Shown one piece after another: positions 4,477 through 21,715 of a stretch of DNA of 22,104 nucleotides. The notes below the pieces were generated by a model. That model did not search any database and was not told the origin of the DNA. It saw nothing but the letters and a program-made list of their open reading frames with translations. The translations under genes were made by a program, and so were the position numbers. The DNA is from an uncultured Thermodesulfobacteriota bacterium (GTDB lineage: Bacteria > Desulfobacterota > Zymogenia > Zymogenales > Zymogenaceae). The stretch spans positions 1 to 22,104 of the forward strand of contig CAZDOD010000028.1 of assembly GCA_964506935.1 (NCBI GenBank). Direction: 5' to 3'. Within the stretch, counting starts at the first letter, position 1, and each line of letters begins with the position of its first letter.

Positions 4477-4477
4477 G

Positions 4478-5029: not shown

Positions 5030-5430
5030 GAAATTTGGGGTATCGAATAGTCGGGCCGATCTTTTTGAGCATTTCGCTTTTATTAATTTGTGGCTGTGCC
5101 ACGGTATCGCATGTCGTAAACCCCCCGCCGAGGGCGACCGATCTCCTCTACACTGAAGACGATGTGATGGATGTCATCGATGAGCTTTCAAAGGGTGAAA
5201 TAGGAGATGAGGACGCCGTGTATTTCGACGGAGAACGCTACTCCTTAAAATCCGGTGTCTATAAAAAGGCCGTAAAGGACGGTGTAGTAAAAAGGATCCA
5301 GGAGAAAAAGATCAGGGAGTTCATAACTGAATACGACCGCGAGACAATAGCTGACGCCGTAAAAAAAGACCTCGGAACGGCGGGGCTGATCGTATTGATC
5401 ATGGTGGTACTGGGGGTTTTGTTGTTGTAG
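5020..5430 (+). CDS. lipoprotein with a lipobox signal and an additional C-terminal TM helix; unimolecular-spanin-like topology
   Basis: The GTG start at 5020 follows the SD GGGAGGTG at 5008-5015 and overlaps the stop of the previous gene. The N-terminus ...LSISLLLICGC ATV fits the lipobox pattern, with cleavage before the second Cys. The extreme C-terminus AGLIVLIMVVLGVLLL forms a TM helix at the end of the protein. Confidence 0.55.
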   Translation: MAVRNLGYRIVGPIFLSISLLLICGCATVSHVVNPPPRATDLLYTEDDVMDVIDELSKGEIGDEDAVYFDGERYSLKSGVYKKAVKDGVVKRIQEKKIREFITEYDRETIADAVKKDLGTAGLIVLIMVVLGVLLL

Positions 5431-5709: not shown

Positions 5710-8700
5710 TCATTTCTTAAAAATCTTCTTCCTTATATCCTCTGCGATGATGTAAAGACACGGAATCACGATAAGGGTGAGTATCACCGCGAATGCCATC
5801 CCCCAAACGATAGATACTGCCATGGGGGTGAGCATTGGTTCTCTGCCGCCGATTCCTATCGCCATCGGGAGGAGACCGCCGATGGTAGTCAGGGTCGTCA
5901 GGAGAATCGGCCTCAGCCTTACCTTTCCCGTCTCAATGACGGCGTTGTATATATCCATACCCTTATCCCTCGCCCGGTTGATGAAATCCACCATTACGAT
6001 TGAATCGTTGACAACGATGCCGATGAGCGCAATAATTCCGATTCCCGCCATGAGCGAAAGCTCGACATTCATGATAAAGAGGCCAAAAACAACGCCTATG
6101 AAGGAGAAAGGTATCGTCACCATTATAATGAGGGGTTGGATGTATGATCTAAAAAGGGCCGCCAATATTATATAGATAAACAGAACAGCGGCAAAAAAGG
6201 CGCGAAGGAGTGAGAAGATCGACTCCATCGTGTCTTCATATTCACCGCCGTATTTAAAGGTGTAACCGGGATACTTATCACTCCTATATCCGAATGTCTC
6301 AATGAGGGCTTCGTTGACGATCTTTGATGTGGTCACACCCTCGATTATATTGGCCGATACCGAAATCGTGCGCTCACGGTCGGAATGATTAATCCTCAAC
6401 ATCCCGTCGCTGTATACGATATCCGCGAAGGCCTTTATGGGGATTCTGTCTCCGTTCCCGTTTTTAACGGAGAAGTTCAAAAGGTGATCGAGGTTTTTTA
6501 GGTCCTCGTCATATTTCACAATGATGTCTATTTTATCGGTGCCCCGTCTTATCGTTCCCGCATTGCTTCCCGAAAAGGCTGAACGAAGCTCTCCGGCGAC
6601 ATCAGAGACGCTCAGGCCCAGGGTTCCCATCTTGTATTCGTCGAACTCAAAACGTATTTCCTCTTTTCCCCTCTTATAATCATCTTCTATGTCCACTACA
6701 CCTTCAATGGATGCGAGCTTCTCTTTGAAATCATCCGCCAGCGCTAGAAGCGTCGAAAATTCATCCCCTTGGATGCTTACTTCAACCGCCGAGCCGCTGG
6801 AAGGCCCCCCGCGTTGCTCCCTGAATCCGATGGATGTTGGGCCGGCGATAAGATCGGTCTTTTTCCTGATATCGGCTGTGATCTTATCGGTACCGATCTT
6901 CTTATAGCCGTACTCGGTCAGTTCCGCACGGATTTCACCTGTATAAGAACTGACCGATGTGATGACCGCCTCTATCTCTTCCTTTGGAAGTCCGAGGATG
7001 ATCTCTTCCACCTCTTTGACCACTCTATCGGTTTCTTCGAGGTTCGAGTCCGTGGGAAGATTTATGCTCACCCTAAATTGCTCGGCGATTCCCCTCCCCA
7101 TAAAAACGAATTTCATGGTAAGGAGCCCAAAGACAATGGTTATAATCGCCAAACCGAAAAGACTGAAAAATACGAGATAGCGACGCTTCAATAAGACACC
7201 AAGTATATTCCCGTAGTAATTCCGAACAGGGATAAACCACGCTCGGGCCTCTTTGTAAATCTCGGCCCCCTTATCTTTAACAAATTCGTTAAGGTGTGAA
7301 GGGAGGACCAAAAACGCCTCCATCAGCGAAGCCAAAAATGTAACAATCACGACAACGGGTATCGCCTTCAGAAATTTACCGATAATTCCAGTCATAAAAA
7401 ACAGGGGGATGAATACTACGATATTGGTTGCTATCGAGGCGACCACGGGGAGAGCGACCTCGTCTGTGCCCAAGACGGCCGATTCAGCGAGTGAATATCC
7501 CATCTCACGATATCGGAAGAAGTTTTCTGACACTACTATGGCGTCATCAACAACAATTCCCAAGACAAGAATTAGGGCGAACATCGAAAGGAGGTTGAGG
7601 GTGATTCCCATGTAGCTCATGACAATGATCGTGAGGAGAAAAGAAAAAGGGATCCCCATTGCCGCCCAGAAGGCCACTCGCGAGTCAAGGAAGGCATAGA
7701 GGATTAATAGCACTAACATCATGCCGAAGGCCGCGTTTAAAAGAAGTGTCTTCTGTCTTTTCTCCACATATTTCGATGCATCATGAACCAGCGATATATT
7801 TATGCCTTCGTCAAGGGTTGCCGACTCTTTTTCTACAATTTTTCTTACCTCTTCGGCGATATCAATAACGTCTCCCGATGTGCTTTTAGTGACCCCAAGT
7901 GAAATGGCTCGATGTCCATTGAGCCTGCTTAAAGACTCTTCCTCCTCGAAGGTCTCGGTGACATCCGCCACATCGCCGACCCTTACGACCCCTTCGGGAT
8001 AAGAACGAACGATGATGTTTTTGATTTCATTCGCTTCATTGGTCTCTCCCATGGCCCTGATGAGGAGCTCTTTCGACCCCGAATCCACAGTTCCGCTGGG
8101 GATGTTTTTATTGCGCTGCTTGATGGCATTTATGATATCCGAAAGCTTGAGATTTGTCGCTTCGAGTCTCCTGGGGTCTGTCTCGACCCAGACCTCCCGA
8201 TCGAGGTATCCCCCCAGGTCTACTGAGCTGACACCCTTGATAAGTTTAATTTCATCTTTCAGGCGGTCAGCCGTATCCCGAAGCTCCTCCTGGGGCGCAT
8301 CACCCCAGATGCCGATCCTGATAACACTGAACCTCGGCTCCCGTTTTACTATATTCGGATCATTGGCGTCTTCGGGGAGGTCGGATACCTTATCGACCTC
8401 ACTCTTTATATCGTTGAGCAATTGATCGAGCTTCGTACCAACGATATCGGCTTCGGCCTTTATGTTGATGACCGAGACTCCTTCGGAGCTCTGTGAGCTG
8501 ATTTCTTCAATGCCGTCGATGTCGGAAATTTCTTCCTCGATGGGAATCGTGATTAGGTTTTCGACCTCTTCCGGCGAGGCGCCCGAGTATGTGGTGGTGA
8601 TGATGATATATCCGAAGTCAACCGCGGGGAAGACCTCCCTGTTGAGCTTGGTTGCAAAGTAGATCCCCAGTACGATGACGCCGACGGTGATCATATTGAC

Positions 8701-8739
8701 GAGGACGGAATTTTTTATCGAGAATCGTGAAAGGGACAT
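5710..8739 (-). CDS. RND efflux transporter permease subunit (HAE1 / AcrB-like, multidrug type)
   Basis: The 1009-aa product has a 12-TM plus two large periplasmic loop architecture. The N-terminus MSLSRFSIKNSVLVNMITVGVIVLGIY... is typical of AcrB. The TM4 motif ...LVLGIVVDDAIVVSEN... matches the HAE1 type G-x-x-VDDAIVV-EN rather than the heavy-metal type. It is the last gene of a three-gene minus-strand operon. Confidence 0.95.
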   Translation of the reverse strand: MSLSRFSIKNSVLVNMITVGVIVLGIYFATKLNREVFPAVDFGYIIITTTYSGASPEEVENLITIPIEEEISDIDGIEEISSQSSEGVSVINIKAEADIVGTKLDQLLNDIKSEVDKVSDLPEDANDPNIVKREPRFSVIRIGIWGDAPQEELRDTADRLKDEIKLIKGVSSVDLGGYLDREVWVETDPRRLEATNLKLSDIINAIKQRNKNIPSGTVDSGSKELLIRAMGETNEANEIKNIIVRSYPEGVVRVGDVADVTETFEEEESLSRLNGHRAISLGVTKSTSGDVIDIAEEVRKIVEKESATLDEGINISLVHDASKYVEKRQKTLLLNAAFGMMLVLLILYAFLDSRVAFWAAMGIPFSFLLTIIVMSYMGITLNLLSMFALILVLGIVVDDAIVVSENFFRYREMGYSLAESAVLGTDEVALPVVASIATNIVVFIPLFFMTGIIGKFLKAIPVVVIVTFLASLMEAFLVLPSHLNEFVKDKGAEIYKEARAWFIPVRNYYGNILGVLLKRRYLVFFSLFGLAIITIVFGLLTMKFVFMGRGIAEQFRVSINLPTDSNLEETDRVVKEVEEIILGLPKEEIEAVITSVSSYTGEIRAELTEYGYKKIGTDKITADIRKKTDLIAGPTSIGFREQRGGPSSGSAVEVSIQGDEFSTLLALADDFKEKLASIEGVVDIEDDYKRGKEEIRFEFDEYKMGTLGLSVSDVAGELRSAFSGSNAGTIRRGTDKIDIIVKYDEDLKNLDHLLNFSVKNGNGDRIPIKAFADIVYSDGMLRINHSDRERTISVSANIIEGVTTSKIVNEALIETFGYRSDKYPGYTFKYGGEYEDTMESIFSLLRAFFAAVLFIYIILAALFRSYIQPLIIMVTIPFSFIGVVFGLFIMNVELSLMAGIGIIALIGIVVNDSIVMVDFINRARDKGMDIYNAVIETGKVRLRPILLTTLTTIGGLLPMAIGIGGREPMLTPMAVSIVWGMAFAVILTLIVIPCLYIIAEDIRKKIFKK

Positions 8740-8754
8740 GTCATTTAATTCTTT

Positions 8755-9738
8755 CTATTGGGTATCTGTTACGATCACAACAGAGCCATCCGACAGATTT
8801 TCCTTGCCGCCGATTACAACAATCTCCCCGGGCTTTGTGCCAGAGATAACCTCCACCTCATCTTCGTTTACGATTCCGAGGTCAAGGGGACGTTTTTTAG
8901 CCTTGTCTTCTTCTATGACGAAACAATAGGGGCCGTTTCTCCCGCTCTCAAATAGGATGGCTTTAGAGGGTATCGTAGTTACTTCGGTTTTCTCTTCGGT
9001 GACAAGAAGGATATCTCCGTACATGCCCGATACGAGTGCCGCATCGTCATTTTCAAATAGGACCTCGGCTCGCGAAGTACGGGTATTTGCGTCAAGGACC
9101 GGGCTGACCTCGCTTATTTCACCGTCAAACGTGTGGTCGGGTAGTGAGGGGACATTAAGCCTCGCCTTCATGCCGACCTTCACAGATCCCATTTCAACTT
9201 CCGGGATGTTTATTACGGCCTTTATCCTTTTATTTCCCAAAATTAATGAAAGGGGTGTTTGCTCCGCGGCGAGTTCTCCGGCATCGAGGTAATTTCGGGC
9301 AACGATCCCCGATATCGGTGACCTGACGTTGAGCGGCATATACTCATCCCATATCTCCTGCCGCTCGAGCCTTACGAGTATCTCCCCCTTTCGTATAGGG
9401 TCGCCCTCATTAAAATTATATTTGATGACCTTTCCAGGTGCGACACTGTAGACCTCGACCTCATCCTCGGCGTGGAGTTCCCCGGTATAGAAGAGGGTGC
9501 TTCGGATATCGCCGGTCGTGACCTCCATCACAGATACCGGAGTCACGCCCGATTCTTTCGATCCCCCTCCAAGGGGGGGTTTTTTCATTTCACCCGCGGG
9601 TAAATTCGATGGCGCCCCACCATGCAAAATAGTCAGTTTTAAAACTACAAATAAGGCCAGAAGCAAGACGATTGTGATAATTCCGATCCCGATCCAAAGT
9701 TTTTTTCCTGTTATTTTAAATCTCACATTACACCCCAT
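8755..9738 (-). CDS. efflux RND periplasmic adaptor (membrane fusion protein, HlyD family)
   Basis: The 327-aa product has an N-terminal membrane anchor (IGIGIITIVLLLALFVVL) and then biotinyl/lipoyl-like and beta-barrel segments (...VYSVAPGKVIKYNFNEGDPIRKGEILVRLE...). It lies 15 nt upstream of the RND permease on the same strand. Confidence 0.85.
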   Translation of the reverse strand: MGCNVRFKITGKKLWIGIGIITIVLLLALFVVLKLTILHGGAPSNLPAGEMKKPPLGGGSKESGVTPVSVMEVTTGDIRSTLFYTGELHAEDEVEVYSVAPGKVIKYNFNEGDPIRKGEILVRLERQEIWDEYMPLNVRSPISGIVARNYLDAGELAAEQTPLSLILGNKRIKAVINIPEVEMGSVKVGMKARLNVPSLPDHTFDGEISEVSPVLDANTRTSRAEVLFENDDAALVSGMYGDILLVTEEKTEVTTIPSKAILFESGRNGPYCFVIEEDKAKKRPLDLGIVNEDEVEVISGTKPGEIVVIGGKENLSDGSVVIVTDTQ

Positions 9739-9828
9739 TACTTCTATGGCTATTTTGGACGTTATATAAAAGGCTATTTAAAAAGTTACATTTTCCCTCA
9801 GATAATATCCTGCCTGATATGCAAAATT

Positions 9829-11163
9829 TTACAGGTCTGACCCCGAAGTATCATCCTCTCCTGTGAGGGGAGCCTTCCCTATTATCTTATCGAGCCTCGC
9901 AAGGGCCTCAGTGTAATTGAATATCGAATCGAGATAATTGATATTCGCCTCGGTAACCGCAAGCTGGGCATCGAGGAGTTCCAAGAGCGTCCCCACGCCG
10001 TTGTCGTAGCGGATCTGGGCCGTCTTGAGGTTTTCCTTTGCCATCTCGACGTTGTACTCCAGTGCCTCGATGATCCCCCTCGCCTCGACCAGATCATAAT
10101 AGGCGTCTTTGATATCAAGCTTTACGGTCTGGGTGGTATCCGAGGCAGAGATCTTTGCCTGTTCATATTGTGCCTTTGCCTGTTTCTTTTTCGCCGCGGC
10201 GACGAGGATATCTGAGATCGGAATATCAATCATTATGCCGGCGGTGAACTCCCAATCCCGGTTATCAAAGCTGATGCCGAGCTCATCGGTTGTGTAATCG
10301 TAATTTGCAAAGGCGTTTATCGTGGGGAAGAAGTTCCCGGTTGCGAGATTCACATTCTTTTTTGCGACGCTCTCATTCAATCTCGATATCTTGAGTTCGG
10401 GGCTTGAGCCTTCCGCCGCCAGGAGATACTCGTCCACGCTCACATCGGTCTGTGTATAGGCTAGCTCCCCCTCTATCTCGATAGATTCATTAAGATCGAT
10501 CCCCAGTAGCTTTTTCAGGGTCTCGTAGGCGGTTGCGAGGTCGTTTTCGGCCCTGATGTAAGAGGGTTTGGCGTTGGCAAGCTCGACCTCAATGCGCATC
10601 AGGTCATATTTAGGGACGAGGCCGTCGTAATATTTATTTTTTGTCATCTCGACATTTTTGGCAAGTAACGCCAATTCTTCCGACCTCATTTCAATTTCCT
10701 TTTTTGCCAGAAGTATATTATAGAAGGCGACCTTCGTATTATACAGGGCATCGCTTACCGCGAGGCGGTACTGTTCATACGAGATCTCGCGCTGGAGATA
10801 GGCGATATTCAGCCCCGATATGACTTTTCCCCCCGAAAACAGGGGGATCGATGCGGTGAGATCGTAATCGTATTGCTCGAAAGACGCCGATCCACCTGAG
10901 AAGGACATCGGTTCTCGATACGTATATCCCGCCCCGGCGCCTACAGAGAGTATGCTCGACCACTCTTCAAAGACCACCCCCTTGAGGCGGTTAATCTCTT
11001 CTGCGGCGATTAATATCTCGGGGGACTGTCTCATTGCGATGTGGATACATTCATCGAGGGTATATGTGAATGTCGGCCTTTCTTCCTCGGCGAAAAGCGT
11101 GGTATTTAAGAAAACAAAAAGGGGTAGAAATATGACGAGTTTTTTTAAGATATCTAATTTCAT
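9829..11163 (-). CDS. TolC-family outer membrane efflux protein (OMF)
   Basis: The 444-aa product has an N-terminal signal peptide (MKLDILKKLVIFLPLFVFLNTTLFA) and two tandem OEP repeats with long coiled-coil segments. It is the first gene of the tripartite efflux operon. Confidence 0.85.
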   Translation of the reverse strand: MKLDILKKLVIFLPLFVFLNTTLFAEEERPTFTYTLDECIHIAMRQSPEILIAAEEINRLKGVVFEEWSSILSVGAGAGYTYREPMSFSGGSASFEQYDYDLTASIPLFSGGKVISGLNIAYLQREISYEQYRLAVSDALYNTKVAFYNILLAKKEIEMRSEELALLAKNVEMTKNKYYDGLVPKYDLMRIEVELANAKPSYIRAENDLATAYETLKKLLGIDLNESIEIEGELAYTQTDVSVDEYLLAAEGSSPELKISRLNESVAKKNVNLATGNFFPTINAFANYDYTTDELGISFDNRDWEFTAGIMIDIPISDILVAAAKKKQAKAQYEQAKISASDTTQTVKLDIKDAYYDLVEARGIIEALEYNVEMAKENLKTAQIRYDNGVGTLLELLDAQLAVTEANINYLDSIFNYTEALARLDKIIGKAPLTGEDDTSGSDL

Positions 11164-11474: not shown

Positions 11475-13004
11475 ATGGATAAGCCGAAAAACGGATTGGA
11501 GACAGGCGATCTCTTAAAACTCGAGGATGTAAAGATCTTGAGGAGGGAGTTTCTCCTGTCAAGCTGCGGGGCGGCGGCCGCCTTTCTTTTGGCGGGGGTA
11601 TTGCCTTCGGGCTGTGTCGATACGGGAAGGATAGCTTCTTTGGAGCCCGCAAAAAAGGCGCTTTATAATTTACTTTTGTTCGACGGGATCGAAAACCGCC
11701 TCAAGAAAGACATCGTGCTCCTGATAGATGGCGATGTGATCTCGGCCGTCGAGACCGGTTGGAATCAGGAGCGTTATCCTGATTATGCACCCATTGACCT
11801 TGGTGGCATGACGCTGATCCCCGGGCTCATAGACAACCACGTCCACGTCACCGTCCCGTTTGTCCGCGAGCCGACGTTTGCGGCGATAACGGGTACAAAC
11901 GACCAGATCGAGAGGAACCTGGCGAGCTGTATCCTGTCGGGCGTGACGACCGTCAGGGACGTGGGGGCGTTTCCGAGAAAGGTCCAGAATTTTCGGGACA
12001 AGATCAATCAGGGGAGGCTAATCGGCCCCAGGATACTCACTACAAACTCCTTCATCTCGACCCCCACCGGCCCGCCGGAGGGCGTTGTGCACCTGAGTCT
12101 GCCCGCCGAGTTATTGATGGGGGGCCAGTTCGTCGAGAGGATCACAACGCCGGAAGAGGTCAGGGCCGTTGCAAATGAGATGTGCGACCTAGGCGCCGAC
12201 TGGTTAAAGACCGGGCATCAATCTATCTCATATATCTTCTGGTCGGAGCCGACCGTCCCGAGCGACGAGTATCTCAGGGCGCTTCTGGAGGTCGGTGAAA
12301 AGCGGGGGAAAAAGATCTGTATGCACCAGCCGTTCCTGTCAGGTTTCGCCAAGGGGGTGGAGATGGGGATCCACACACTCGAGCACTGCCCCAATGACGG
12401 GCTGATCCCATACGACCAGATAGAGACCTTTATGAAGAAGGGGATGGCGATACTCCCCACGATGATGGCTTTCGGCGACGAGTTCGAGATGGACGATATT
12501 CGGGTATGGATCAAGGAAAACGGCCACAAGTATCTCGAAGAGGAGCCGCTCCGCCAGGTAATCGAATCAATCGAGGTGAGGTGTCAGGAGCCGTATCCGC
12601 CCGCCGATTATCTTGAGAAGGGCTATTATGACTATGAGTTGATGATGCCGATGTTTCCGAACTTGGTAAAGAACGTCTCGAGATTGAGGCAGATGGGCGC
12701 AAGGGTCGGCGTCGGGACCGATCTCGGCGGGACGATGGTGGGATTTTTCGGGCTGTATCACAGGGAGTTGAAACACCTCAAAAATGCCGGATTTTCGAAC
12801 TTCGAGATACTCAGAAACGCCACCGCGACAAACGCCGAAATCATAGACATGGGAGACAAGATCGGGACGATAGAGGCGGGAAAATTAGCCGACATAGTGG
12901 CGGTCAAAGGAAATCCCCTGTCGGATATCAACGCAATGAAAGACGTCAAGATGGTAATGAAGGGGGGAGTCTTTATGCTTGACCATCGAGTTGAGAGTAT
13001 GTGA
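11475..13004 (+). CDS. amidohydrolase-family metal-dependent hydrolase with an N-terminal twin-arginine (Tat) signal
   Basis: The 509-aa product carries the Tat motif RREFLL followed by the h-region AAAAFLLAGVL. The amidohydrolase metal-binding motif ...LIDNHVHV... (H-x-H) is present, with later His/Asp ligands (...GIHTLEHC..., ...GVGTDLGG...). Confidence 0.85.
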   Translation: MDKPKNGLETGDLLKLEDVKILRREFLLSSCGAAAAFLLAGVLPSGCVDTGRIASLEPAKKALYNLLLFDGIENRLKKDIVLLIDGDVISAVETGWNQERYPDYAPIDLGGMTLIPGLIDNHVHVTVPFVREPTFAAITGTNDQIERNLASCILSGVTTVRDVGAFPRKVQNFRDKINQGRLIGPRILTTNSFISTPTGPPEGVVHLSLPAELLMGGQFVERITTPEEVRAVANEMCDLGADWLKTGHQSISYIFWSEPTVPSDEYLRALLEVGEKRGKKICMHQPFLSGFAKGVEMGIHTLEHCPNDGLIPYDQIETFMKKGMAILPTMMAFGDEFEMDDIRVWIKENGHKYLEEEPLRQVIESIEVRCQEPYPPADYLEKGYYDYELMMPMFPNLVKNVSRLRQMGARVGVGTDLGGTMVGFFGLYHRELKHLKNAGFSNFEILRNATATNAEIIDMGDKIGTIEAGKLADIVAVKGNPLSDINAMKDVKMVMKGGVFMLDHRVESM

Positions 13005-13041
13005 GTTGATAAAAGATTACAAAAAAATATTGATAAAAGAT

Positions 13042-13064
13042 GGCCCGCCTTTTTAAGGCGGGCC
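13042..13064. terminator. bidirectional rho-independent terminator between convergent genes
   Basis: A perfect 8-bp GC stem, ggcccgcc / ggcgggcc, encloses the loop tttttaa. It is flanked by A/T-rich runs on both sides. It lies between the amidohydrolase stop (13004, +) and the glnA stop (13192, -). Confidence 0.55.
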
Positions 13065-13191
13065 GAAGTTTTCTACGACCTTCGGTTTTTGGTTACAAGT
13101 GTCTTTTGATCGATATTCAACCTGAATCAACTTGGCCCGAAGAAAAACAGGATTTTCAATTACAACAAAGCCCACGGTGAACGCTATAAGT

Positions 13192-14520
13192 CTACATGAT
13201 CGGGAGATAGTTTTCGATCTCGTACCGGCTTACGTGAGTCCTGAATCGATCCCATTCGATCTTTTTGTTTTCGATGAATTTATTGAAGATGTGTTCCCCC
13301 AGGGCTTCTTTTACAAGTTCACTCTTCTCAAGCTCCGATACCGCCTCGTAGAGGTTCCCCGGCAGTTCAATGATGCCCCGATCCCTCCTCTTTTCCGGAG
13401 AAAACTCATAGACGTCCTCTTCGATCGGGGATGGAATTTCGTACCCTTCCTCGATCCCCTTTAGGCCAGCGGCCAGCATCACCGAAAATGCGAGATATGG
13501 ATTGCAGGCGGGGTCGGGAGACCGGAACTCAATCCTCGTTGCCTTCTCCTTTCCGGGCTTATACTGGGGGACCCTGACCATCGTCGACCTGTTTCGCCTC
13601 GCCCAGCTTACGTAGACCGGGGCCTCGTAACCCGGAACGAGCCTCTTGTAAGAGTTCACCCACTGGTTGCATATTGCGGTCATCTCCCTCGCATGCTTTA
13701 GTATCCCTGCGATGTACCCCTTGGCGTCCTGTGAGAGGTTGAGCGGATCGGAGGGGTCATGGAATGCGTTTCTTTCGCCTTTGAAGAGCGACTGATGTGT
13801 GTGCATTCCGCTCCCGTTGATACCGAAGATCGGCTTGGGCATGAAGGTGGCGTAAAATCCGTGCTGGCGCGCTATCTCCTTTACCGTCACCCTGAGCGTT
13901 GTGAATTTATCGGCCATCCTCAATGCCTCGTCGTAGCGCAAGTCGATCTCGTGCTGGCTCGGTGCGACCTCGTGGTGACTGTACTCGATATCGATCCCGA
14001 ATTTCTGCAGGGCGAAGATCGTCTCCCTCCTTAATATTCCAGCGAGATCCAAGGGGGGTGCGTCGAAATATCCGCCTTCGTCTAAGACCTTCGGCTCCTT
14101 GTTGTCGGCGAAGTAGAAGAATTCGGGTTCGGGACCGACATAAAACGTATACCCCTTATCCTTTGCCTTTTGGATCGCCCTTTTTAGGGCATACCTCGGA
14201 TCGCCCTTGTAGGGGCTTCCATCGGGCTCAAGAATATCACAGAACATCCGCGCAACCGGTTTTTCTTCGTCACGCCACGGGAGGAGCTCAAGGCTCGCCG
14301 GATCGGGTTTTGCGATCATGTCGCTCTCTTCTATCCTGGCGAATCCCTCGATCGACGAACCGTCAAATCCCATTCCTTCGGAGAGCGCCTCCTCCATTTC
14401 TCCGGGTGTGACCGCAAAGCTTTTCAGAATACCGAGGATATCGGTGAACCAGAACTGAACGAAGCTTACATTCCTCTCTTTGATGAGCGATAAAACATCT
14501 CTTTTTGTGTTTGCTAACAT
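13192..14520 (-). CDS. glnA: glutamine synthetase type I
   Basis: The product has the GS beta-grasp N-terminal domain (...VLSLIKERNVSFVQFWFTDILG...) and the catalytic domain (...GSGMHTHQSLF..., ...RVPQYKPG...). The listed ORF begins at 14562 (MFFSFKKRKETGKEM...), but the ATG at 14520 (MLANTKRD...) follows the purine-rich stretch GAAAGGAAACAGGAAAGGAA. It also gives the N-terminal length expected from GlnA alignments, so 14520 is preferred; 14562 remains possible. Confidence 0.9.
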   Translation of the reverse strand: MLANTKRDVLSLIKERNVSFVQFWFTDILGILKSFAVTPGEMEEALSEGMGFDGSSIEGFARIEESDMIAKPDPASLELLPWRDEEKPVARMFCDILEPDGSPYKGDPRYALKRAIQKAKDKGYTFYVGPEPEFFYFADNKEPKVLDEGGYFDAPPLDLAGILRRETIFALQKFGIDIEYSHHEVAPSQHEIDLRYDEALRMADKFTTLRVTVKEIARQHGFYATFMPKPIFGINGSGMHTHQSLFKGERNAFHDPSDPLNLSQDAKGYIAGILKHAREMTAICNQWVNSYKRLVPGYEAPVYVSWARRNRSTMVRVPQYKPGKEKATRIEFRSPDPACNPYLAFSVMLAAGLKGIEEGYEIPSPIEEDVYEFSPEKRRDRGIIELPGNLYEAVSELEKSELVKEALGEHIFNKFIENKKIEWDRFRTHVSRYEIENYLPIM

Positions 14521-14636
14521 TTCCTTTCCTGTTTCCTTTCTTTTTTTAAAACTAAAAAACATGTTTTTTGTTTTGGCTTCTCAAAAACCTCCTCAAATAG
14601 ATGTGTTGCCCAAAAAATTATGGGAGGTTTTTACTT

Positions 14637-15923
14637 TTAGTTGACCTTCTTCTTTGAGAGTATCTCCGTGATATCCAATCCTGTAGCACTTTTGATACCC
14701 TCAAAAAACGCCGATGTTGCACCTGTTATCCCCTTTACATAAGCGGGGATTCCGTTTCCGTCACCGCCGTCGAGGATGGTGACTTTATCGATCTGGAGGT
14801 TGTCTTTGATGACGCTCGTGACCTTGTCGATGATGTATGGGAGCTGCTGAATTAGATAAAGCTCTCGAGTCTCCTCCTTTTCCCACTCCTCGCGTAACGC
14901 CTTGATTGCCTCGGCCATTGCCTTTCCGTCCTCAACGATTTGTGCGGCTTCTCCCTTCGCAAGCAAAAGCGACGCCTCTTTCTGCGCCCGGGCGGGGATG
15001 ATGGTCTCCGCCTCGTATTTCTTCTGGTTCTTCTTTATGCGGGCGTCTTCGAGCTTTGCCTCTTCGGTTACCTTTGAGATCTCGGTTGCAACGAGTGCCT
15101 TCGATTCGGCGGTGTTGACGTTGGTGGCAAGCTCTGCCATTTTGATTTTCATTTTGTTCTCGGCCTCGATAACGGCGATGTCGGATTCGTACTCCGCCAC
15201 ACTCCCCTTCTTTTTTGCCTCCGCCGCAACTACGCGGGCTTCGGCTTCCGACTCCGATTCGGAAATGAGGGCATCACGCTTGACTTCGGCGCTTCTCTTC
15301 CTCCCGATGTTTTCGAGATAACCGGTGTTGTCGGAAATCTTCTTTATCTTGAAGGTATCCAATACCAGGCCCAGCTTTTTTAGATCTTTTTGCGCCTCGT
15401 CAGAGACCTTTGCCGCAAAATCGATCCTCTTTTCGTTCGCATCTTCCGGAGTCAGTGTTGAGAGGACACCACGAAGACTACCCTCAATTGTGTGCTTGGC
15501 AACCTGAGAGATATCCGTTACGTTCCTTCCCAAGAACCTCTCTATGGCGTTTGTGATCCCTTCGGTCTCTGTACCCGCTATTTTCACGTTTGCCGATGCC
15601 TCGACATCCAATGGGATGAGCCCTTTTGTGAGGGTACCCAAAAGCTCCATGTCGAGCGGTATTATGTTCAGAGACATTCGAGAGACCGATTCGACTATAG
15701 GTATCTTGAGTCCCCTTCCACCCTTGATGACCCGGTAGCCCACGATTGTCCCGTCTTTTAGCCTTCGCTTTTTGCCGGAAAAGATCAAGAGCTCATTCGG
15801 GGGGGCGATAACAAGGTTGACCTTGATGAATGTCAAGATTAAAGCCACAAGAATAACTCCCACCGCAATAAGGACACCTATTTTATCTGGAGAGAGTTCC
15901 ATAGTTATACCTCCTAATTCCAT
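14637..15923 (-). CDS. flotillin / SPFH (band-7) domain membrane protein, YqiK/FloT-like
   Basis: The 428-aa product has an N-terminal TM helix (IGVLIAVGVILVALILTF), an SPFH domain, and then a long Ala/Glu/Lys-rich coiled-coil (...EAEARVVAAEAKKKGSVAEYE...EEAKLEDARIKKNQKKYEAE...). Two in-frame ATGs at 15923 and 15902 are each preceded by AGGAGG. Confidence 0.85.
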   Translation of the reverse strand: MELGGITMELSPDKIGVLIAVGVILVALILTFIKVNLVIAPPNELLIFSGKKRRLKDGTIVGYRVIKGGRGLKIPIVESVSRMSLNIIPLDMELLGTLTKGLIPLDVEASANVKIAGTETEGITNAIERFLGRNVTDISQVAKHTIEGSLRGVLSTLTPEDANEKRIDFAAKVSDEAQKDLKKLGLVLDTFKIKKISDNTGYLENIGRKRSAEVKRDALISESESEAEARVVAAEAKKKGSVAEYESDIAVIEAENKMKIKMAELATNVNTAESKALVATEISKVTEEAKLEDARIKKNQKKYEAETIIPARAQKEASLLLAKGEAAQIVEDGKAMAEAIKALREEWEKEETRELYLIQQLPYIIDKVTSVIKDNLQIDKVTILDGGDGNGIPAYVKGITGATSAFFEGIKSATGLDITEILSKKKVN

Positions 15924-15957
15924 GTTTAAACCTCCTTTATGTTCACTGTCCGATTTA

Positions 15958-16299
15958 CTATCCGATGGCCTGTCTCCCCCTCTCTCCCGTCCTTATTCGG
16001 ACGACCTGGGGGAGATCGAGGACAAAGATTTTTCCATCACCTATGTTTCCCGTTCGGGCGCCTTTTATGATGGCATCGATGGTCGGCTCGACATACTCTT
16101 CGTTTACGGCTATTTCGAGCCTTATCTTCTTCAATAGATTGATCTCTTTTGGAATACCTCGATAAGTCTCTGTATAGCCCATCTGCCTCCCGGCACCGAG
16201 AGCGGTGCTTACCGTCATCAGATATATCTCGTTTTCATAAAGCGCCTTTTTGACGTCGGGGAGTCTTTGGGGCTGTATAATGGCAACAACAAGTTTCAT
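15958..16299 (-). CDS. glnK: P-II nitrogen regulatory protein (GlnB/GlnK family)
   Basis: The 113-aa product aligns along its full length with P-II ([10 protein letters not shown]...MTVS...G.GRQ.G.TE.YRG...KIFV.D...IRTGE). It lies 18 nt downstream of amt on the same strand. The T-loop reads [16 protein letters not shown], with neither Tyr51 nor Ser49. Confidence 0.9.
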
Positions 16300-16317
16300 A
16301 CACTTTCCTCCTATCTA

Positions 16318-17808
16318 TTACTCGGTGGTGAAGATCTGAAAACTGGGATACGCTTCCATGCCGTGTTCTCCTATATCGAGTCCGCGAAGTTCTTCCTCGG
16401 AAGTGACCCTCAAGCCAATGAGACTGTTGATTATATAGAAGAGGGCAAAACCGCAAGTGATCACAAAAGAGAAGACGCTGATTACGCCGATCGTCTGAAT
16501 TCCGAGGAGCTTCCATCCGCCCCCGTATAACAGACCTCCATCGGTTGCAAAGAGTCCCAGGGCGATTGTACCCCACGCACCGTTTACGCCGTGGACGGCG
16601 ATTGCGCCGACCGGATCGTCGATTTTCAGTGTCTTATCGATAAAGATCACGGCGAGTACCACAAGCGTTCCTGCTATCATGCCGATCCATACCGCACCCC
16701 CGGGGCTGACAAAGGCGCACGGTGCCGTAATGGCAACAAGCCCTGCCAATGCCCCGTTGATGGCCATGCTCGCATCCGGTTTTTTGAACAGCCACCATGA
16801 GATAAACATGGCAGAGATGGCACCGGCACCGGCCGAAAGGTTAGTCGTCGTAACGATGTGTGCGATATCCTTTGCCGAGGCCTCCATGGTGCTTCCGGCG
16901 TTGAATCCGAACCAGGCGAACCACAGGATGAAACCGCCGAGTGCGGCGAGCGGGATGTTATGTCCGTGAATAGCCTTTGGTATGCCGTCGGCATCGTATT
17001 TGCCGAGTCTCGGCCCCAGTATCACGACGGCAGAAAGAGACAGCCAACCCCCAACGGAGTGGACCACCGTTGATCCTGCAAAGTCGAGAAAGCCGAGTTC
17101 CCCAAGCCAGCCGCCGCCCCATATCCAGTGGCCGACAACCGGATAGATGAACGCCGAGATGACAATCGTGTAAAAGATGTAGGCGGTAAACTTGGCCCTC
17201 TCGGCAACCGCTCCCGCAACGATAGTTGCAGCGGCGCCGCAGAATACGAGCTGGAAGAAATACTTCGCCTCAAGTGGCACGGTCGTCCAAGATAGGGAGT
17301 TGAATGTACCCCCGGCATCATGGAGAAAAAAGCCGCTTGTGCCGAATAGGGCGTTTCCCGCACCGAACATGATGGCGAACCCGACCGCCCAGTATGTAAT
17401 GGTCGCAAAGCAGAAATCCATCACGTTTTTCATGATCAGGTTGACGGAGTTTTTGGCGCGGATGAATCCCGCCTCGAGCATGGCAAATCCGGCTTGCATG
17501 AACATGACGAGGACCCCGGCGATGATGACCCAGACAGTGTCGAGGTCAGTCTTGTAGATCTGGATTAATTCCTCCTCCTCGGCTTTGGTGACTTCAGCTT
17601 CTTCATAAACTTCCGGGCCTTGAGTAATCTCTCCCTCGGATCCCATCTCCACATCGGGGATTTCGAGGGCACCCTCTTCGCCTATCGAAGTATCGACTGC
17701 TGTTGCATCGAGGGGCGCCTCGCCCTCCTCCTGGGCGAAGACGATCATAGTGGTGGTTGCGAAAAGAATGGATACCGCAAGGAGTACCCATATTTTTTTA
17801 TCTATCAT
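16318..17808 (-). CDS. amt: ammonium transporter (Amt/MEP family) with a signal peptide and an acidic periplasmic N-terminal extension
   Basis: The Amt signature ...DFCFATITYWAVGFAIMFG... and 11 TM segments are present. The listed ORF starts at 17820 (MEGSMIDKK...), but the ATG at 17808 (MIDKK...) is preceded at good spacing by GGAGGG, so 17808 is preferred. Confidence 0.9.
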   Translation of the reverse strand: MIDKKIWVLLAVSILFATTTMIVFAQEEGEAPLDATAVDTSIGEEGALEIPDVEMGSEGEITQGPEVYEEAEVTKAEEEELIQIYKTDLDTVWVIIAGVLVMFMQAGFAMLEAGFIRAKNSVNLIMKNVMDFCFATITYWAVGFAIMFGAGNALFGTSGFFLHDAGGTFNSLSWTTVPLEAKYFFQLVFCGAAATIVAGAVAERAKFTAYIFYTIVISAFIYPVVGHWIWGGGWLGELGFLDFAGSTVVHSVGGWLSLSAVVILGPRLGKYDADGIPKAIHGHNIPLAALGGFILWFAWFGFNAGSTMEASAKDIAHIVTTTNLSAGAGAISAMFISWWLFKKPDASMAINGALAGLVAITAPCAFVSPGGAVWIGMIAGTLVVLAVIFIDKTLKIDDPVGAIAVHGVNGAWGTIALGLFATDGGLLYGGGWKLLGIQTIGVISVFSFVITCGFALFYIINSLIGLRVTSEEELRGLDIGEHGMEAYPSFQIFTTE

Positions 17809-17861
17809 AGATCCCTCCATTTCGAAATTGGCAAAAGAGTTTCAGTTTGCTCCTATATAGA

Positions 17862-17877
17862 GCAAATTTGTTGCCAA
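17862..17877 (-). promoter_or_regulatory. sigma-54 (-24/-12) promoter directing transcription toward amt
   Basis: The minus strand reads cTTGGCAACAAATTTGCTc. This is TGGCAA-N5-TTGCT against the consensus TGGCAC-N5-TTGCW, with the GG and GC doublets 10 nt apart. It lies about 55 nt upstream of the amt start and about 100-140 nt downstream of palindromic candidate enhancer sites. A GAFTGA-containing sigma-54 activator is encoded immediately upstream. Confidence 0.65.
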
Positions 17878-17974
17878 GATTTACAAGCCTTGCGAGTAAG
17901 GCTGTAAGCTATTGAAATTAAAGGGATTTTTATGTTGGGGCTATGGAGTATGAAGGGACAATAGGTTCATAAAG

Positions 17975-18018
17975 CCTACATATTGGTAGGAAATAACTAT
18001 AAAAGCTACCTTTTGGTA
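17975..18018. promoter_or_regulatory. composite palindromic element: CCTAC-N6-GTAGG (17975-17990), a 16-nt spacer, then TACC-TTTT-GGTA (18007-18018). Candidate enhancer/UAS for the amt sigma-54 promoter.
   Basis: Two dyad-symmetric motifs are read directly. The same two motifs recur at 19587-19630 with an identical 16-nt spacing and mirrored order. The element lies 100-155 bp upstream of the -24/-12 promoter, the canonical position for enhancer-binding-protein sites. The second motif overlaps the activator gene's stop codon. Confidence 0.45.
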
Positions 18019-19568
18019 CTAAATTTTTTCGGGTCGATGCCGTATCTCTTGACCCGAAGGCCCATCAGTCTCTCGGAAATGCCTAGGGTTAGGGCGGCCT
18101 TTGCCTTGTTCCCCCTCGAGGATTTCAGGGCGTCGGAGATCATCTCCGTTTCGAGCGCCTGCAGGGACTCCTCGAGGGTTCCGCGTAAGTGAGTACCGGA
18201 CGCCTCGGCCGTCTGAAGGGTGGGGGGTAGGTGGTGGCCGTGGATGACGCCGTCGTTGCTCAACAGTACAGCCCGCTCGATGCAGTTTTCAAGCTCACGG
18301 ACATTTCCCGGCCAGTGATAGCTGATCAGCATGTCGATTGCAGGGGTTGAGACACGCCTTATGCTTTTGTGGTTGAGACCGCTGTATTTTTCGACGAAGT
18401 AGTCGGCGAGGAGCAAAATGTCGGCGCGCCGTTCCCTGAGCGGCGGGATATGGATCGGAAAGACGTTGAGGCGAAAATAGAGGTCCTCACGGAAATTTTT
18501 TTCCTCAATGAGTTTTTCGAGGTTTCTGTTTGTGGCGGCGATGATTCTGACATCGGTCTTGATCGTCTTGGTGCCTCCGACCCTTTCAAATTCGCGCTCC
18601 TGAATGACCCGAAGGAGCTTGATCTGTGTCTGGGGGGATAGGTCGCCGATCTCGTCGAGGAAGATCGTCCCGCCGTGGGCGAGTTCAAACCGCCCCTTTT
18701 TCGTTGCGTGTGCGCCGGTAAAGGCGCCCTTTTCGTGCCCGAATAGCTCGCTCTCGATGACACTGTCGGGAAGAGCGGCGCAGTTGACCTTGATAAAGGG
18801 GTTGTTTGCTCGTGGGCTGTCAAAGTGAATGGCGCCGGCGACGAGCTCCTTTCCGGTTCCGCTCTCTCCGTAGATCAGGACGGTCGTATTGCTCTTCGAC
18901 ACCTGGCCGATCAGGTCAAAGACCTCAAACATTCGTTTCGAGTTGCCGATGATGTTCTGGGGGCGGAAGCGGTCTTTGAGCTTTTCTCTAAGACGGATGT
19001 TTTCGTCGAGGAGCTTCTGTCTCTCTTCCTGTGCCGATCTCCTTAGATGTACGGCCTGGGCGATCAGCGAGGCGATGATGGAGAGGAGTCGGAGGTCGTC
19101 AGAGAGCGAGATATCTTCGTTATAGATACGGTCGAAGCTGAGGGTGCCGATGACCTCGTTTTCAAGCTTGATCGGCACACAGATAAATGAGATATCGTCG
19201 GCGGCGGAGTCTTTGCTGATACCGGTTCGGTTGAGAAACTCGGGTTCTTCGGAAATTCTCGGAACTACTATCGGCTCTTTTGTCTCTACCACCTTTCCCG
19301 TCACGCCCTCGCCGATCTTGTATCTCCCCCGTTCCTTTTGGGAATCGGAGAGCCCGTAGGCCGAGTCGATAAATATATCGCCGGTATGTCTGTCAAGGAG
19401 GGTGATGGTGCCGTGTAGCATGTTCATATATGCAGCCATTTTTTCGAGGACGGGCCCCACGACTTCCCGAAGATCCATGCTCAAGTCGAGGGTGCGGCTT
19501 ATCTCAAAGATAAGGTTTAGTTCACTGGATTCCCGCTTGTTTTTGTAATCTCGGCCGATTGGTTCCAT
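18006..19568 (-). CDS. sigma-54-dependent transcriptional activator with an N-terminal GAF sensor, an AAA+ sigma-54 interaction domain and a C-terminal Fis-type HTH; NifA/NtrC-like but without a receiver domain
   Basis: The 520-aa product has a GAF-like N-terminus. Walker A is ...YGESGTGKELVAG..., the GAFTGA motif is ...GHEKGAFTGA..., and the HTH is ...RGNKAKAALTLGISERLMGLRVKRYGI.... It sits directly upstream of the sigma-54 promoter of the amt cluster on the same strand. Confidence 0.9.
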   Translation of the reverse strand: MEPIGRDYKNKRESSELNLIFEISRTLDLSMDLREVVGPVLEKMAAYMNMLHGTITLLDRHTGDIFIDSAYGLSDSQKERGRYKIGEGVTGKVVETKEPIVVPRISEEPEFLNRTGISKDSAADDISFICVPIKLENEVIGTLSFDRIYNEDISLSDDLRLLSIIASLIAQAVHLRRSAQEERQKLLDENIRLREKLKDRFRPQNIIGNSKRMFEVFDLIGQVSKSNTTVLIYGESGTGKELVAGAIHFDSPRANNPFIKVNCAALPDSVIESELFGHEKGAFTGAHATKKGRFELAHGGTIFLDEIGDLSPQTQIKLLRVIQEREFERVGGTKTIKTDVRIIAATNRNLEKLIEEKNFREDLYFRLNVFPIHIPPLRERRADILLLADYFVEKYSGLNHKSIRRVSTPAIDMLISYHWPGNVRELENCIERAVLLSNDGVIHGHHLPPTLQTAEASGTHLRGTLEESLQALETEMISDALKSSRGNKAKAALTLGISERLMGLRVKRYGIDPKKFSTKR

Positions 19569-19586: not shown

Positions 19587-19630
19587 TACCTTTTGGTATG
19601 ATTATTGTCCAAAACCTACGATATTGTAGG
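19587..19630. promoter_or_regulatory. second copy of the composite palindromic element: TACC-TTTT-GGTA (19587-19598), a 16-nt spacer, then CCTAC-N6-GTAGG (19615-19630). It lies immediately upstream of the activator gene start and is a candidate autoregulatory operator.
   Basis: The 12-mer TACCTTTTGGTA is identical to 18007-18018. The CCTAC-N6-GTAGG arms are identical to 17975-17990. The spacing is 16 nt in both copies. It sits 19-62 nt upstream of the activator ATG (19568, minus strand). Confidence 0.45.
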
Positions 19631-20080: not shown

Positions 20081-21715
20081 ATGAATATCTCAAAATCGTG
20101 GAGTGCAAAAGACAGGTCCGATTACGTAAAGGAGCTTTCCGAGACTACCTACGACGTCCTGATCGTCGGCGGCGGTATTACTGGCGCCGGTGTCCTCAGG
20201 GCGTTGGGGCTTCGCAACATCAAGGCCGCCCTGATCGATAAGGAGGATTTCGCCTTCGGGACGTCATCGAAGAGCACGAGGCTCGCCCACGGCGGGATGA
20301 GGTACATCTTCAATAAGGAATACAGGCTGGTTTCCGAGGCGTGTCACGAGAGGGACTGGCTGAGGGGCGCCTTCCCGAACCTAGTTAGGCCTACCCCGGT
20401 CATGTTCATCAACTTCAGTTTAGAGGTCGCAAAGATCATGGGAAGAGCCTTCCGTCTGTATGACCTCCTTTCGGGGTTCGGGAATTACAAGAACTATCGC
20501 CACATACCGCTCGAAGGCCTGAATAAACACGAGCCGAAAATAAAGATTCCAAATGTCCACTCGGGGTGCCTCATATATGAGTGCGTCATAAACGACGCCC
20601 GCCTGACCACGGATGTCATAAAAGAGGGTGTTTCTCTCGGCGGCGTTGCCCTAAACTACGTTGAGGCAAAAGGGGTCGTAAAAAAAGACGGTAAGGTCAC
20701 CGGTATCAGCGCTTTGGATAAAGAGTCCGGAGATTCGTTTGTTATCTCGGCAAGAAACGTCGTAAATGCCTGTGGGCCGTGGACGGACGACCTGATGACA
20801 GGGGGAAAAAAGAGGATTATCAGGCCCACGAAGGGTGTGCATCTCGTGGTCAGGCGCGAGAATGTCGGAAACCTCGGCGGATTGTATTTGATGAGTCCCG
20901 TCGACGGCCGCGGTGTTTTTTTGCTCGCCCACGGAGATTATACCTACCTCGGCACGACCGACACCGATTACAATGGCGACCTCGACCAATGCTATACCGA
21001 CAGGGACGAATATCAGTATCTCAAAAAGGTTATCGATCACTGTTTTCCCGACGCGAAGTTTGAAGAGGAGGACCTACTAGGTAGCTACGCCGGTATCAGG
21101 CCACTGGTGCTGGAGGAGGGCGTCTCCGAGACGAAGACGTCCCGAAAGGAGCTGATAGACGAGATCATGCCGGGTTTTTTCGTCATCACGGGTGGAAAGC
21201 TAACGATCTTTCGCAGCATGGCCGAAAAGCTCATCGCCTTTATGGGAAAGAGGGGCGCCCTCGACGTCAGGAGGTTCGGCAAGAGGCGCTCAAAATCCCG
21301 TTTGCTTATGGGGATGAAGGCGGGTAAGTGGAAAAAGTCCGCCCCGAAAGTGGGGCTCGAAGATGGGATTATGGAACATATCTACCAGAACTACGGGAGA
21401 GGGGGGATATCGATCCTCGATTTGGTTAAAAAAGACTCCTCTCTCGGCGGTATCATCACGGACGGCCAGAATAATATTTGGGCCGAGCTAGAATACAGCC
21501 TCGAATATGAGCATGTGACTCACGTCAAGGATTTTCTCCTTCGCCGAACAAACCTCTCGCTCTACCAGCGTGACGGTCACGAAGATCTGGGTAGGGAGGT
21601 CGCGAAACGCATGGCGAAGTATCTCGGATGGGATGAGGGGAGGACAAAAAGGGAGATTTCCGATTACGTCGACATCGCCCACAAGAACAGCTTTTTTCTG
21701 AAAAAGAAATCTTAG
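20081..21715 (+). CDS. glpD: FAD-dependent glycerol-3-phosphate dehydrogenase (GlpD/GlpA family)
   Basis: The FAD-binding motif is DVLIVGGGITGAG. The motif ...GTSSKSTRLAHGGMRY...YRLVSEA...ER.WL parallels the E. coli GlpD block ATSSASSKLIHGGLRY...FRLVSEAL.ER. At 544 aa the length fits the GlpD family. GGGGTG lies upstream of the ATG. Confidence 0.85.
   Translation: MNISKSWSAKDRSDYVKELSETTYDVLIVGGGITGAGVLRALGLRNIKAALIDKEDFAFGTSSKSTRLAHGGMRYIFNKEYRLVSEACHERDWLRGAFPNLVRPTPVMFINFSLEVAKIMGRAFRLYDLLSGFGNYKNYRHIPLEGLNKHEPKIKIPNVHSGCLIYECVINDARLTTDVIKEGVSLGGVALNYVEAKGVVKKDGKVTGISALDKESGDSFVISARNVVNACGPWTDDLMTGGKKRIIRPTKGVHLVVRRENVGNLGGLYLMSPVDGRGVFLLAHGDYTYLGTTDTDYNGDLDQCYTDRDEYQYLKKVIDHCFPDAKFEEEDLLGSYAGIRPLVLEEGVSETKTSRKELIDEIMPGFFVITGGKLTIFRSMAEKLIAFMGKRGALDVRRFGKRRSKSRLLMGMKAGKWKKSAPKVGLEDGIMEHIYQNYGRGGISILDLVKKDSSLGGIITDGQNNIWAELEYSLEYEHVTHVKDFLLRRTNLSLYQRDGHEDLGREVAKRMAKYLGWDEGRTKREISDYVDIAHKNSFFLKKKS

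Follow-up and report, generated by a model that had tools for sequence, protein, structure and literature searches.

Why should a flotillin gene lie inside a nitrogen-assimilation operon, between the gene for a P-II protein and that for glutamine synthetase (GS)? The question is raised by a stretch of 22,104 nucleotides (nt) from an uncultured Thermodesulfobacteriota bacterium of the family Zymogenaceae (contig CAZDOD010000028.1 of assembly GCA_964506935.1; the whole stretch is hereafter called the window), in whose list of open reading frames (ORFs) the genes for an ammonium transporter (amt), a P-II protein, an SPFH/flotillin protein and GS (glnA) are consecutive on the minus strand. The first-pass annotation of this DNA described four tightly spaced, co-oriented genes with gaps of 18, 34 and 74-116 nt, and both the genes and the gaps are present as described. 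Comparison of related loci shows that the flotillin is, as far as gene content and sequence can tell, a conserved and selected component of a nitrogen-assimilation cluster governed by sigma-54 and a GAF-type activator. The functional reading that is favored here, with a probability of roughly one half, is that the flotillin is an integral, selected member of this ammonium-assimilation operon and organizes Amt, the GlnK-type P-II and GS at the membrane. The genes concerned are as follows.

16318-17820, minus strand: Amt ammonium transporter, 500 amino acids (aa); PF00909 (Ammonium_transp), E=1.7e-122, residues 96-491
15958-16299, minus strand: GlnK-type P-II, 113 aa; PF00543, E=5e-26; 18 nt 3' of amt
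14637-15923, minus strand: SPFH/flotillin protein, 428-aa ORF; likely start at 15902, giving 421 aa
13192-14562, minus strand: type I glutamine synthetase (glnA), short GSI-alpha-like; probable start at 14520, giving 442 aa

Gene neighborhoods were surveyed with a flotillin profile made from 26 family members, which was searched against a collection holding one genome per species; a scan of the same genome contigs with the single protein found no relative, whereas the profile search succeeded. The window's five proteins were mapped to the resulting loci by tblastn and at the ORF level, and a locus was counted as linked when a P-II gene and/or glnA lay at most 2 kb from the flotillin gene on the same strand. 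Linked loci are found in 44 of the 80 species-representative genomes with flotillin relatives, and the co-localization with amt, P-II and glnA, which the first-pass annotation had proposed to survey, is thus recurrent. A P-II gene occurs in 39 of the 41 linked loci whose upstream sequence extends over 500 nt or more, and amt occurs in 23 of the 24 whose flanks are long. L040, the exception, is situated on a Desulfobacterales chromosome, where the 3' end of the P-II gene and the 5' end of the flotillin gene are fused or deleted (9763-10894) and no amt is present within 10 kb; the module has apparently decayed here, unless the assembly is in error.

All flotillins with at least about 45% identity are linked, and below about 45% the relatives are either tandem flotillin pairs of the Myxococcota type or single genes of Rhodothermales, without adjacent nitrogen genes; L045 is borderline among these sister clades, with amt-P-II located 688 nt upstream of its flotillin gene. 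Neighbor joining of 106 flotillins places the 36 linked sequences of full length in a single clade, with bootstrap support of 60/60. Six more distant members were looked up in addition, and all six had the order amt-P-II-glnA-flotillin, some with glutamate synthase (GOGAT) genes in the vicinity. The possibility, raised in the first pass, that orthologues are never linked to nitrogen genes is decisively contradicted, as all clade members examined are linked, and on this comparative evidence the flotillin is not a strain-specific insertion. The linked loci carry the labels Desulfobacterales, Syntrophobacteria, Zymogenaceae, Spirochaetota/Leptospiria, Acidobacteriota and Planctomycetota (Sedimentisphaerales and Pirellulales), with single Chlamydiota and Pseudomonadota bins also among them; these are labels of metagenome-assembled genomes (MAGs) and are to be taken with caution. 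One of them, L037, is labeled Leptospira biflexa and is a MAG whose nearest database proteins all derive from Spirochaetota MAGs; a sigma-54-controlled, nitrogen-responsive gene of L. biflexa itself, LEPBI_I1011, is reported in a review (PMC12655853). The tandem pairs (L043 and L046-L080, mostly from Myxococcota-type MAGs) comprise two diverged flotillin genes and resemble the eukaryotic Flot1/Flot2 heteromer.

Three gene orders are found among the linked loci: (i) amt-P-II-flotillin-glnA, as in the window; (ii) P-II-flotillin-glnA-amt, an order that includes each of the nine Spirochaetota loci, with gaps of about 9-45 nt; and (iii) amt-P-II-glnA-flotillin. All clade members examined lie within a co-oriented cluster with glnA, one P-II subfamily and amt, and the flotillin gene directly adjoins glnA in every locus where the contig permits this to be checked. 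The identity of the linked Amt proteins to that of the window falls into bands of about 33-39%, 46-53% and 64-71%, and the GS of the clusters is either the short form of 442 aa or a long, E. coli-like form of 471-491 aa. Since the adjacency of glnA and the P-II subfamily are invariant and Amt is variable, the proximate partners of the flotillin are no less likely to be GS and P-II than Amt. Clustering of neighboring ORFs in the 41 linked loci yielded no recurrent family besides the activator, Amt, P-II, flotillin and GS; in particular, no NfeD partner gene is found among the ORFs at 13192-19568 of the window and none is recurrent in those 41 loci. In five loci a glutamine-dependent nicotinamide adenine dinucleotide (NAD) synthetase gene (CN_hydrolase and NAD_synthase domains) lies 3' of glnA, e.g., at L001:5432-7177. 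L164, L165 and L167, which have arrangement (iii), carry around the module a further short GS together with a GATase and genes of a multi-subunit glutamate synthase; judging from these genes, the surroundings are a larger nitrogen-assimilation island.

The protein itself is, by sequence, a true flotillin homologue. PF01145 (Band_7) is matched at residues 39-227 (E=1.3e-22), and the parts follow in the order N-terminal membrane anchor, SPFH domain, helix of about 145 residues and conserved C-terminal region. A search of PDB sequences with the family profile returned flotillins only (E=2e-49 to 1e-19), with E=2e-49 for human flotillin-1 and E=3e-38 for flotillin-2. An AlphaFold2 model was built from 26 sequences, and only its secondary structure and the ranking of its fold matches were used. 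Briefly, at a predicted local distance difference test (pLDDT) score of 60.5, it comprises a helix at residues 5-29, the strands and helices of the SPFH domain at 44-191, a long helix at 195-340 and C-terminal strands and helices. The flotillin complexes 9bq2 and 9l3g occupy the first ranks in Foldseek, followed by stomatin, HflK/C and prohibitin cages, and the Band 7 domain of mouse flotillin-2 (1win) is matched with a template-modeling (TM) score of 0.76, normalized to the target. PF15975 is precomputed for some of the flotillin homologues. In the 26 family members, a single N-terminal hydrophobic segment (mean Kyte-Doolittle value 2.95) is preceded by about 0.3 Lys/Arg residues and followed by about 6.2 in the next 25 residues; by the positive-inside rule, this asymmetry predicts that the bulk of the flotillin is cytoplasmic, on the same side as P-II and GS. 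By analogy with other SPFH proteins, the flotillin would assemble into a ring- or dome-shaped oligomer. Conservation is strong, with a mean column identity of 77% over the 26 members, and the greatest divergence from the outgroups is in the last 40 residues. Two other assignments were considered and set aside. The bacterial FloT model (NCBIfam NF058507) gave 187.6 bits against an equivalog cutoff of 700 and covered only model positions 4-279 of 477, so that a FloT equivalog is ruled out; and a defense system was rejected, as PADLOC had no match for the flotillin or P-II.

The regulatory elements upstream of the cluster are as follows; the activator gene and the palindromic site candidates go beyond the first-pass annotation.

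17861-17876, minus strand: sigma-54 -24/-12 promoter TGGCAACAAATTTGCT, 41 nt 5' of the amt ATG
17977-17988, minus strand: activator-site candidate TACCAATATGTA, second copy of the upstream pair
18007-18018, minus strand: activator-site candidate TACCAAAAGGTA, overlapping the activator stop codon
18006-19568, minus strand: NifA-like sigma-54 enhancer-binding protein, 520 aa; Pfam GAF, Sigma54_activat, AAA_lid_14 and HTH_8
19587-19598, minus strand: third palindrome copy TACCAAAAGGTA, 19 nt upstream of the activator start

TGGCA-N6-TTGCW is matched exactly just once in the 22 kb window, by the promoter TGGCAACAAATTTGCT, and the earlier claim of a single sigma-54 promoter therefore stands, apart from its coordinates, which had been given one base off (17862-17877). 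The activator scores 543.3 on the nifA model TIGR01817, marginally over the cutoff of 528.85. Because no nif genes are present in the window and no NifA-type TGT-N10-ACA site is found in the promoter region, the protein is best called, from its sequence and setting, a NifA-like activator of nitrogen assimilation rather than NifA; it is presumed to be the activator of the operon. The palindromic motif TACCAA-N3-GTA has three matches in the window against 0.06 expected. Two of them form the pair at 17977-18018, between the activator gene and the promoter, approximately 100-140 nt upstream of the -24 element, and the third may be an autoregulation site. The presence of copies on both sides of the activator gene therefore suggests that the activator drives the amt operon and also regulates its own gene.

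The same layout is found among the relatives. A homologue of the activator with 55-73% identity is present in 17 of the 44 linked loci, mostly directly upstream of the cluster and in a few loci downstream on the opposite strand; in L168, too, a GAF-type activator lies directly upstream. The scan of relatives for sigma-54 elements held GG and GC constant and required a match at 10 or more of the 11 specified positions. By this measure, elements occur in about two dozen related loci, only in intergenic positions ahead of the cluster's first gene or of a glnA copy that stands apart, and none was found within genes or between P-II, flotillin and glnA. Paired 12-bp palindromes are located upstream of these promoters, and their type co-varies with that of the activator: TACC-N4-GGTA pairs stand in the same place in L001, L002, L007, L016, L028 and L041, with activators about 70% identical to that of the window, and TACA-N4-TGTA pairs in Desulfobacterales and Syntrophobacteria loci, with activators about 57% identical to it. 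Short intergenic gaps of 9-40 nt are found in many relatives. The flotillin-glnA spacer measures 11-33 nt in about half of the loci with arrangement (i) or (ii) and reaches about 110-250 nt elsewhere, where some of the longer spacers contain possible extra promoters, seen by eye only.

With the activator gene, palindromes, sigma-54 site and terminator in the window, the unit therefore extends from activator through terminator, in the order activator, activator sites, sigma-54 promoter, amt, P-II, flotillin, glnA and terminator. Its 3' part contains two further features.

14521-14636, minus strand: flotillin-glnA spacer, 116 nt, AT-rich; contains the ribosome-binding site of glnA and a hairpin with a long loop
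13041-13065, both strands: bidirectional intrinsic terminator, 10-11 pairs, 8 of them G-C, with T-runs on either strand

The ORFs are separated by 18 nt (amt/P-II), 34 nt (P-II/flotillin) and 74 nt (flotillin/glnA). Homologue alignments begin at Met8 of the flotillin ORF (15902) and Met15 of the glnA ORF (14520), and the real gaps are therefore probably 55 nt before flotillin and 116 nt before glnA. No sigma-70-like promoter was detected in 12900-18200, against 4.7 expected, and the terminator 3' of glnA is the sole strong one in this region. The spacer shows neither a sigma-70 or sigma-54 site nor a convincing terminator, and a Rfam scan of the whole window returned zero families at the gathering score, with no known riboswitch or leader in the spacer. 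The spacer hairpin AAAACCUCC...GGAGGUUUU was considered as a terminator or attenuator and dropped, its stability being that of shuffled sequence (z=-0.13). As neither an internal promoter nor a strong terminator is found, co-transcription through to glnA is likely, and it is unproven because of the 116-nt spacer. The terminator is shared with a convergent amidohydrolase gene (11475-13004, plus strand), which encodes 509 aa with a hydrophobic, signal-like N-terminal segment.

The partner proteins were characterized in the same manner. The window Amt scores 436 bits on TIGR00836 (cutoff 343). Its residues 1-95 (17536-17820, minus strand) form an extension before the Pfam domain, in which a signal-like hydrophobic stretch is followed by a very acidic, Glu-rich linker; the Amt of L001 is likewise long (509 aa). 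From its composition, this extension could be a periplasmic, cation-attracting tail. The window GS carries Pfam Gln-synt_N and Gln-synt_C and scores 541 bits on TIGR00653 (cutoff 429) but no more than 299 bits on PRK09469, the model of the E. coli type, on which the long, E. coli-like GS forms of other lineages (471-491 aa) reach about 595 bits.

The window P-II was aligned with what we take to be the E. coli GlnB and GlnK sequences, whose residue numbering is followed here, and with the P-II proteins of flotillin-linked loci. The window P-II has Tyr46, Arg47, Gln39, Lys58 and the adenosine triphosphate (ATP) motif TGxxGDGKIF, and its residue 51 is Lys, not Tyr. The P-II proteins of the linked loci constitute one 113-aa subfamily, with the motifs IIQPhKL, MTVs/tNaLG and YTETYRG, a C-terminal AIG, invariant G87, D88, G89, K90, Y46, R47 and K58, and 52-84% identity, mostly above 58%; Tyr51, the uridylylation/adenylylation site, is never present in it. 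Many P-IIs of Desulfobacterales and Syntrophobacteria (L005-L023) have the effector-binding residues Arg38 and Gln39 replaced, with GCGNTMG for GxGRQxG, and these changes hint at altered sensing of 2-oxoglutarate or ATP. In three Desulfobacterales genomes, a canonical GlnB that keeps Tyr51 and a long-form glnA lie immediately downstream of the flotillin module, so that two parallel P-II/GS modules adjoin.

L013:8754-10446: canonical GlnB and second glnA
L020:14365-16000: canonical GlnB and second glnA
L040:12514-14187: canonical GlnB and second glnA

Because canonical GlnB adjoins in these loci, the flotillin-linked P-II is, by this sequence criterion, a distinct paralogue. The idea that the P-II subfamily requires flotillin was rejected, since related P-II genes often occur without it among the matches listed.

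Several known systems resemble this cluster in part. The eukaryotic flotillin-1/flotillin-2 complex (9bq2, 9l3g) is the best match in sequence and fold (residues 30-300), both proteins having about 420-430 aa, and it shares the order of anchor, SPFH domain, long helix and C-terminal region as well as the cytoplasmic bulk. By contrast, the window flotillin is anchored by an N-terminal hydrophobic segment, is encoded in a metabolic operon together with candidate clients and is presumably a homo-oligomer, because there is only one flotillin gene. FloT and FloA of Bacillus subtilis and YqiK of E. coli belong to the same SPFH/flotillin membrane family, and the FloT model is partly matched; however, they are usually paired with NfeD, whereas the window protein of about 420 aa has no NfeD partner, and to our knowledge a nitrogen-assimilation context has not been reported for FloT, FloA or YqiK. 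The amtB-glnK and glnB/glnK-glnA operons have the same pairing of amt with a GlnK-type P-II, the T-loop Arg47, the glnA linkage, the -24/-12 promoter, an adjacent AAA+ activator and upstream palindromes. The window operon differs from them in the flotillin as a fixed member, in a one-component GAF (NifA-like) activator in place of NtrBC, in a site motif that is not the NifA TGT-N10-ACA and in a P-II without Tyr51. Regulators are also sequestered at the membrane on AmtB-GlnK-type complexes, as in AmtB-GlnZ-DraG of Azospirillum and AmtB-GlnK-TnrA of Bacillus. These share the idea that nitrogen regulators or enzymes are organized at the membrane around Amt and P-II, although Amt itself is the platform there and no SPFH scaffold is involved or operon-encoded.

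From these comparisons, the following mechanism is proposed. Under nitrogen limitation, the adjacent activator would bind the TACC-N4-GGTA palindromes and fire the sigma-54 promoter, and the transporter, its P-II plug, the flotillin and GS would be produced together. The flotillin, with one N-terminal hydrophobic anchor and a cytoplasmic bulk, would oligomerize, as other SPFH proteins do, into a ring or dome at the cytoplasmic side of the membrane, and this assembly would organize a microdomain that keeps Amt trimers together with GlnK and/or GS. Imported ammonium could thereby be trapped by GS at the channel mouth, with less back-leak of NH3 and less futile cycling, and P-II control would act locally in the microdomain. 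As for the direct partner of the flotillin, gene order favors GS and P-II. Precedents for such an assembly are the stomatin domes around AQP1 and UT-B and the tie between RhAG and stomatin in red cells, both described below.

A number of observations weigh against this proposal. The amt gene is never the immediate neighbor of the flotillin gene, and its position and subtype vary; the flotillin coexists with very different Amt and GS subtypes, and this tolerance argues against a tight, co-evolved docking surface on Amt or GS. Just seven clade-specific residues are invariant in the flotillin, an obvious partner-binding motif was looked for among the clade-specific residues and none was found, and the AlphaFold2 model is of low confidence (pLDDT 60.5). 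Related P-IIs with 56-67% identity occur mostly in flotillin-free amt-P-II pairs (metagenome sample, among the matches listed), and the scaffold is therefore dispensable for basic Amt/GlnK function; judged by gene content, there is a wider amt-glnK(-glnA) module to which the flotillin is an optional addition, and the dependence is one-way. Furthermore, the 116-nt spacer 5' of glnA leaves room for an undetected promoter or a partial terminator. Finally, all family members derive from MAGs or metagenomes, isolate carriers having been looked for without success, and the function must therefore be tested heterologously.

Other explanations of the flotillin were weighed against the proposed organizing role. 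The one that survives best, unlikely as it appears, is that the flotillin encapsulates the channel alone: a dome around Amt trimers would tune their activity, lipids or access by P-II, with no role for GS, and the adjacency of glnA would reflect shared regulation only. RhAG, a protein of the Amt/Rh family, supplies a parallel from human red cells. Stomatin domes encapsulate the channels AQP1 and UT-B (PMC13041759; PDB 9zd2, which is also in the Foldseek list), and RhAG mutations lead to stomatocytosis with secondary loss of stomatin from red cells (PMC5911802), so that an SPFH oligomer is tied in the one case to channels for small neutral or nitrogenous solutes and paired in the other with an Amt/Rh-family protein. 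By analogy, these cases suggest that SPFH cages are more generally connected with channels for small nitrogenous solutes. The lipid dependence of AmtB, as it appears from the citation of the original paper in PMC10433425, and the presence of amt in nearly all long-flank clusters point in the same direction. However, stomatin represents another SPFH subfamily in a eukaryotic red-cell setting without GS or P-II, and the likeness is an analogy, not homology of the systems; moreover, it is glnA whose adjacency is universal, whereas amt, as noted above, never adjoins the flotillin gene and changes in position and subfamily (33-71% identity).

Somewhat less probable again is a general membrane-homeostasis factor of the nitrogen-starvation regulon, which would control membrane order, fluidity or leakage when the cell starves or overproduces a membrane channel, and which would have no specific client. 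Bacterial flotillins such as FloA and FloT are tied to membrane fluidity and broad client sets, and the tolerance of different Amt and GS subtypes and the few clade-specific residues would agree with such a role. For a generic factor, by contrast, a dedicated clade that always stands beside glnA, in three independent gene orders and several phyla, would be unexpected.

A stronger form of the organizing role, which we regard as improbable, is that a closed cytoplasmic flotillin dome encloses Amt trimers, GlnK and GS dodecamers as an ammonium-capture compartment. In such a dome, the ammonium brought in by Amt would be turned into glutamine before it could be lost as NH3, with P-II gating the channel from within; this would be the first bacterial flotillin with defined clients, and also the first case of a metabolic enzyme inside an SPFH cage. 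Still more doubtful is a quality-control adaptor that recruits a protease for the turnover of Amt, GS or P-II when nitrogen returns, in the manner of HflK/C with FtsH or of stomatin with NfeD proteases: the structural neighbors HflK/C-FtsH (7wi3, 9cz2) and QmcA-YbbJ (8z5g) fit this model, yet no protease or NfeD gene is recurrent in the clusters. Neutral hitch-hiking after a single ancestral insertion that persisted without functional connection, for which it can be said that the function is read from sequence alone and that flotillin-free amt-P-II pairs with related P-IIs exist, is very hard to reconcile with a linkage that spans lineages labeled as at least four phyla and has outlasted both the reshuffling of gene order and the replacement of amt and glnA subtypes, with the strong conservation of the flotillin, and with the one decayed copy, L040, also being without amt.

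The roles and specific clients of bacterial flotillins are still debated, and a flotillin clade fixed in one operon names both candidate clients, i.e., Amt, the GlnK-type P-II and GS, and a condition, nitrogen limitation. The avoidance of futile NH4+/NH3 cycling, and whether Amt and GS are coupled physically or metabolically, have long been discussed; a scaffold co-expressed with Amt and GS would, if the proposal is true, provide a concrete mechanism for this coupling. The cluster is furthermore a compact regulatory module, with a GAF activator, paired palindromes, a sigma-54 promoter and a P-II without modification site, for which heterologous reconstitution is possible. In the full-text literature, whose coverage leaves out most subscription journals, no description was found that ties P-II, Amt or GS to a flotillin or SPFH protein of bacteria, and this absence is therefore not proof; as far as could be tested, the earlier statement that a flotillin is not a described component of the nitrogen-regulation (Ntr) system thus holds. 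A 2023 review of prokaryotic Amt proteins does not mention flotillin, nor do the P-II interactome studies examined mention SPFH proteins. What is new is the dedicated flotillin clade as a fixed extra member, the operon type itself being known; the flotillin is likely a new part of the nitrogen machinery, in a lineage that keeps its position in dozens of uncultured species.

The remainder of the window contains several other genes. A three-gene resistance-nodulation-division (RND) efflux operon (5710-11163, minus strand) encodes an OEP outer-membrane factor, an HlyD-type membrane-fusion protein and an AcrB-family pump, and appears unconnected to the flotillin finding. A 1016-aa protein with a weak CarboxypepD_reg match is encoded at 48-3098 (plus strand), and the region of about 2 kb at 3077-5430 (plus strand) holds only short ORFs with no Pfam match and has a strongly positive GC skew. 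A GlpD-like flavin adenine dinucleotide (FAD) oxidoreductase (DAO and DAO_C) is encoded toward the opposite end of the window, at 20081-21715 (plus strand).

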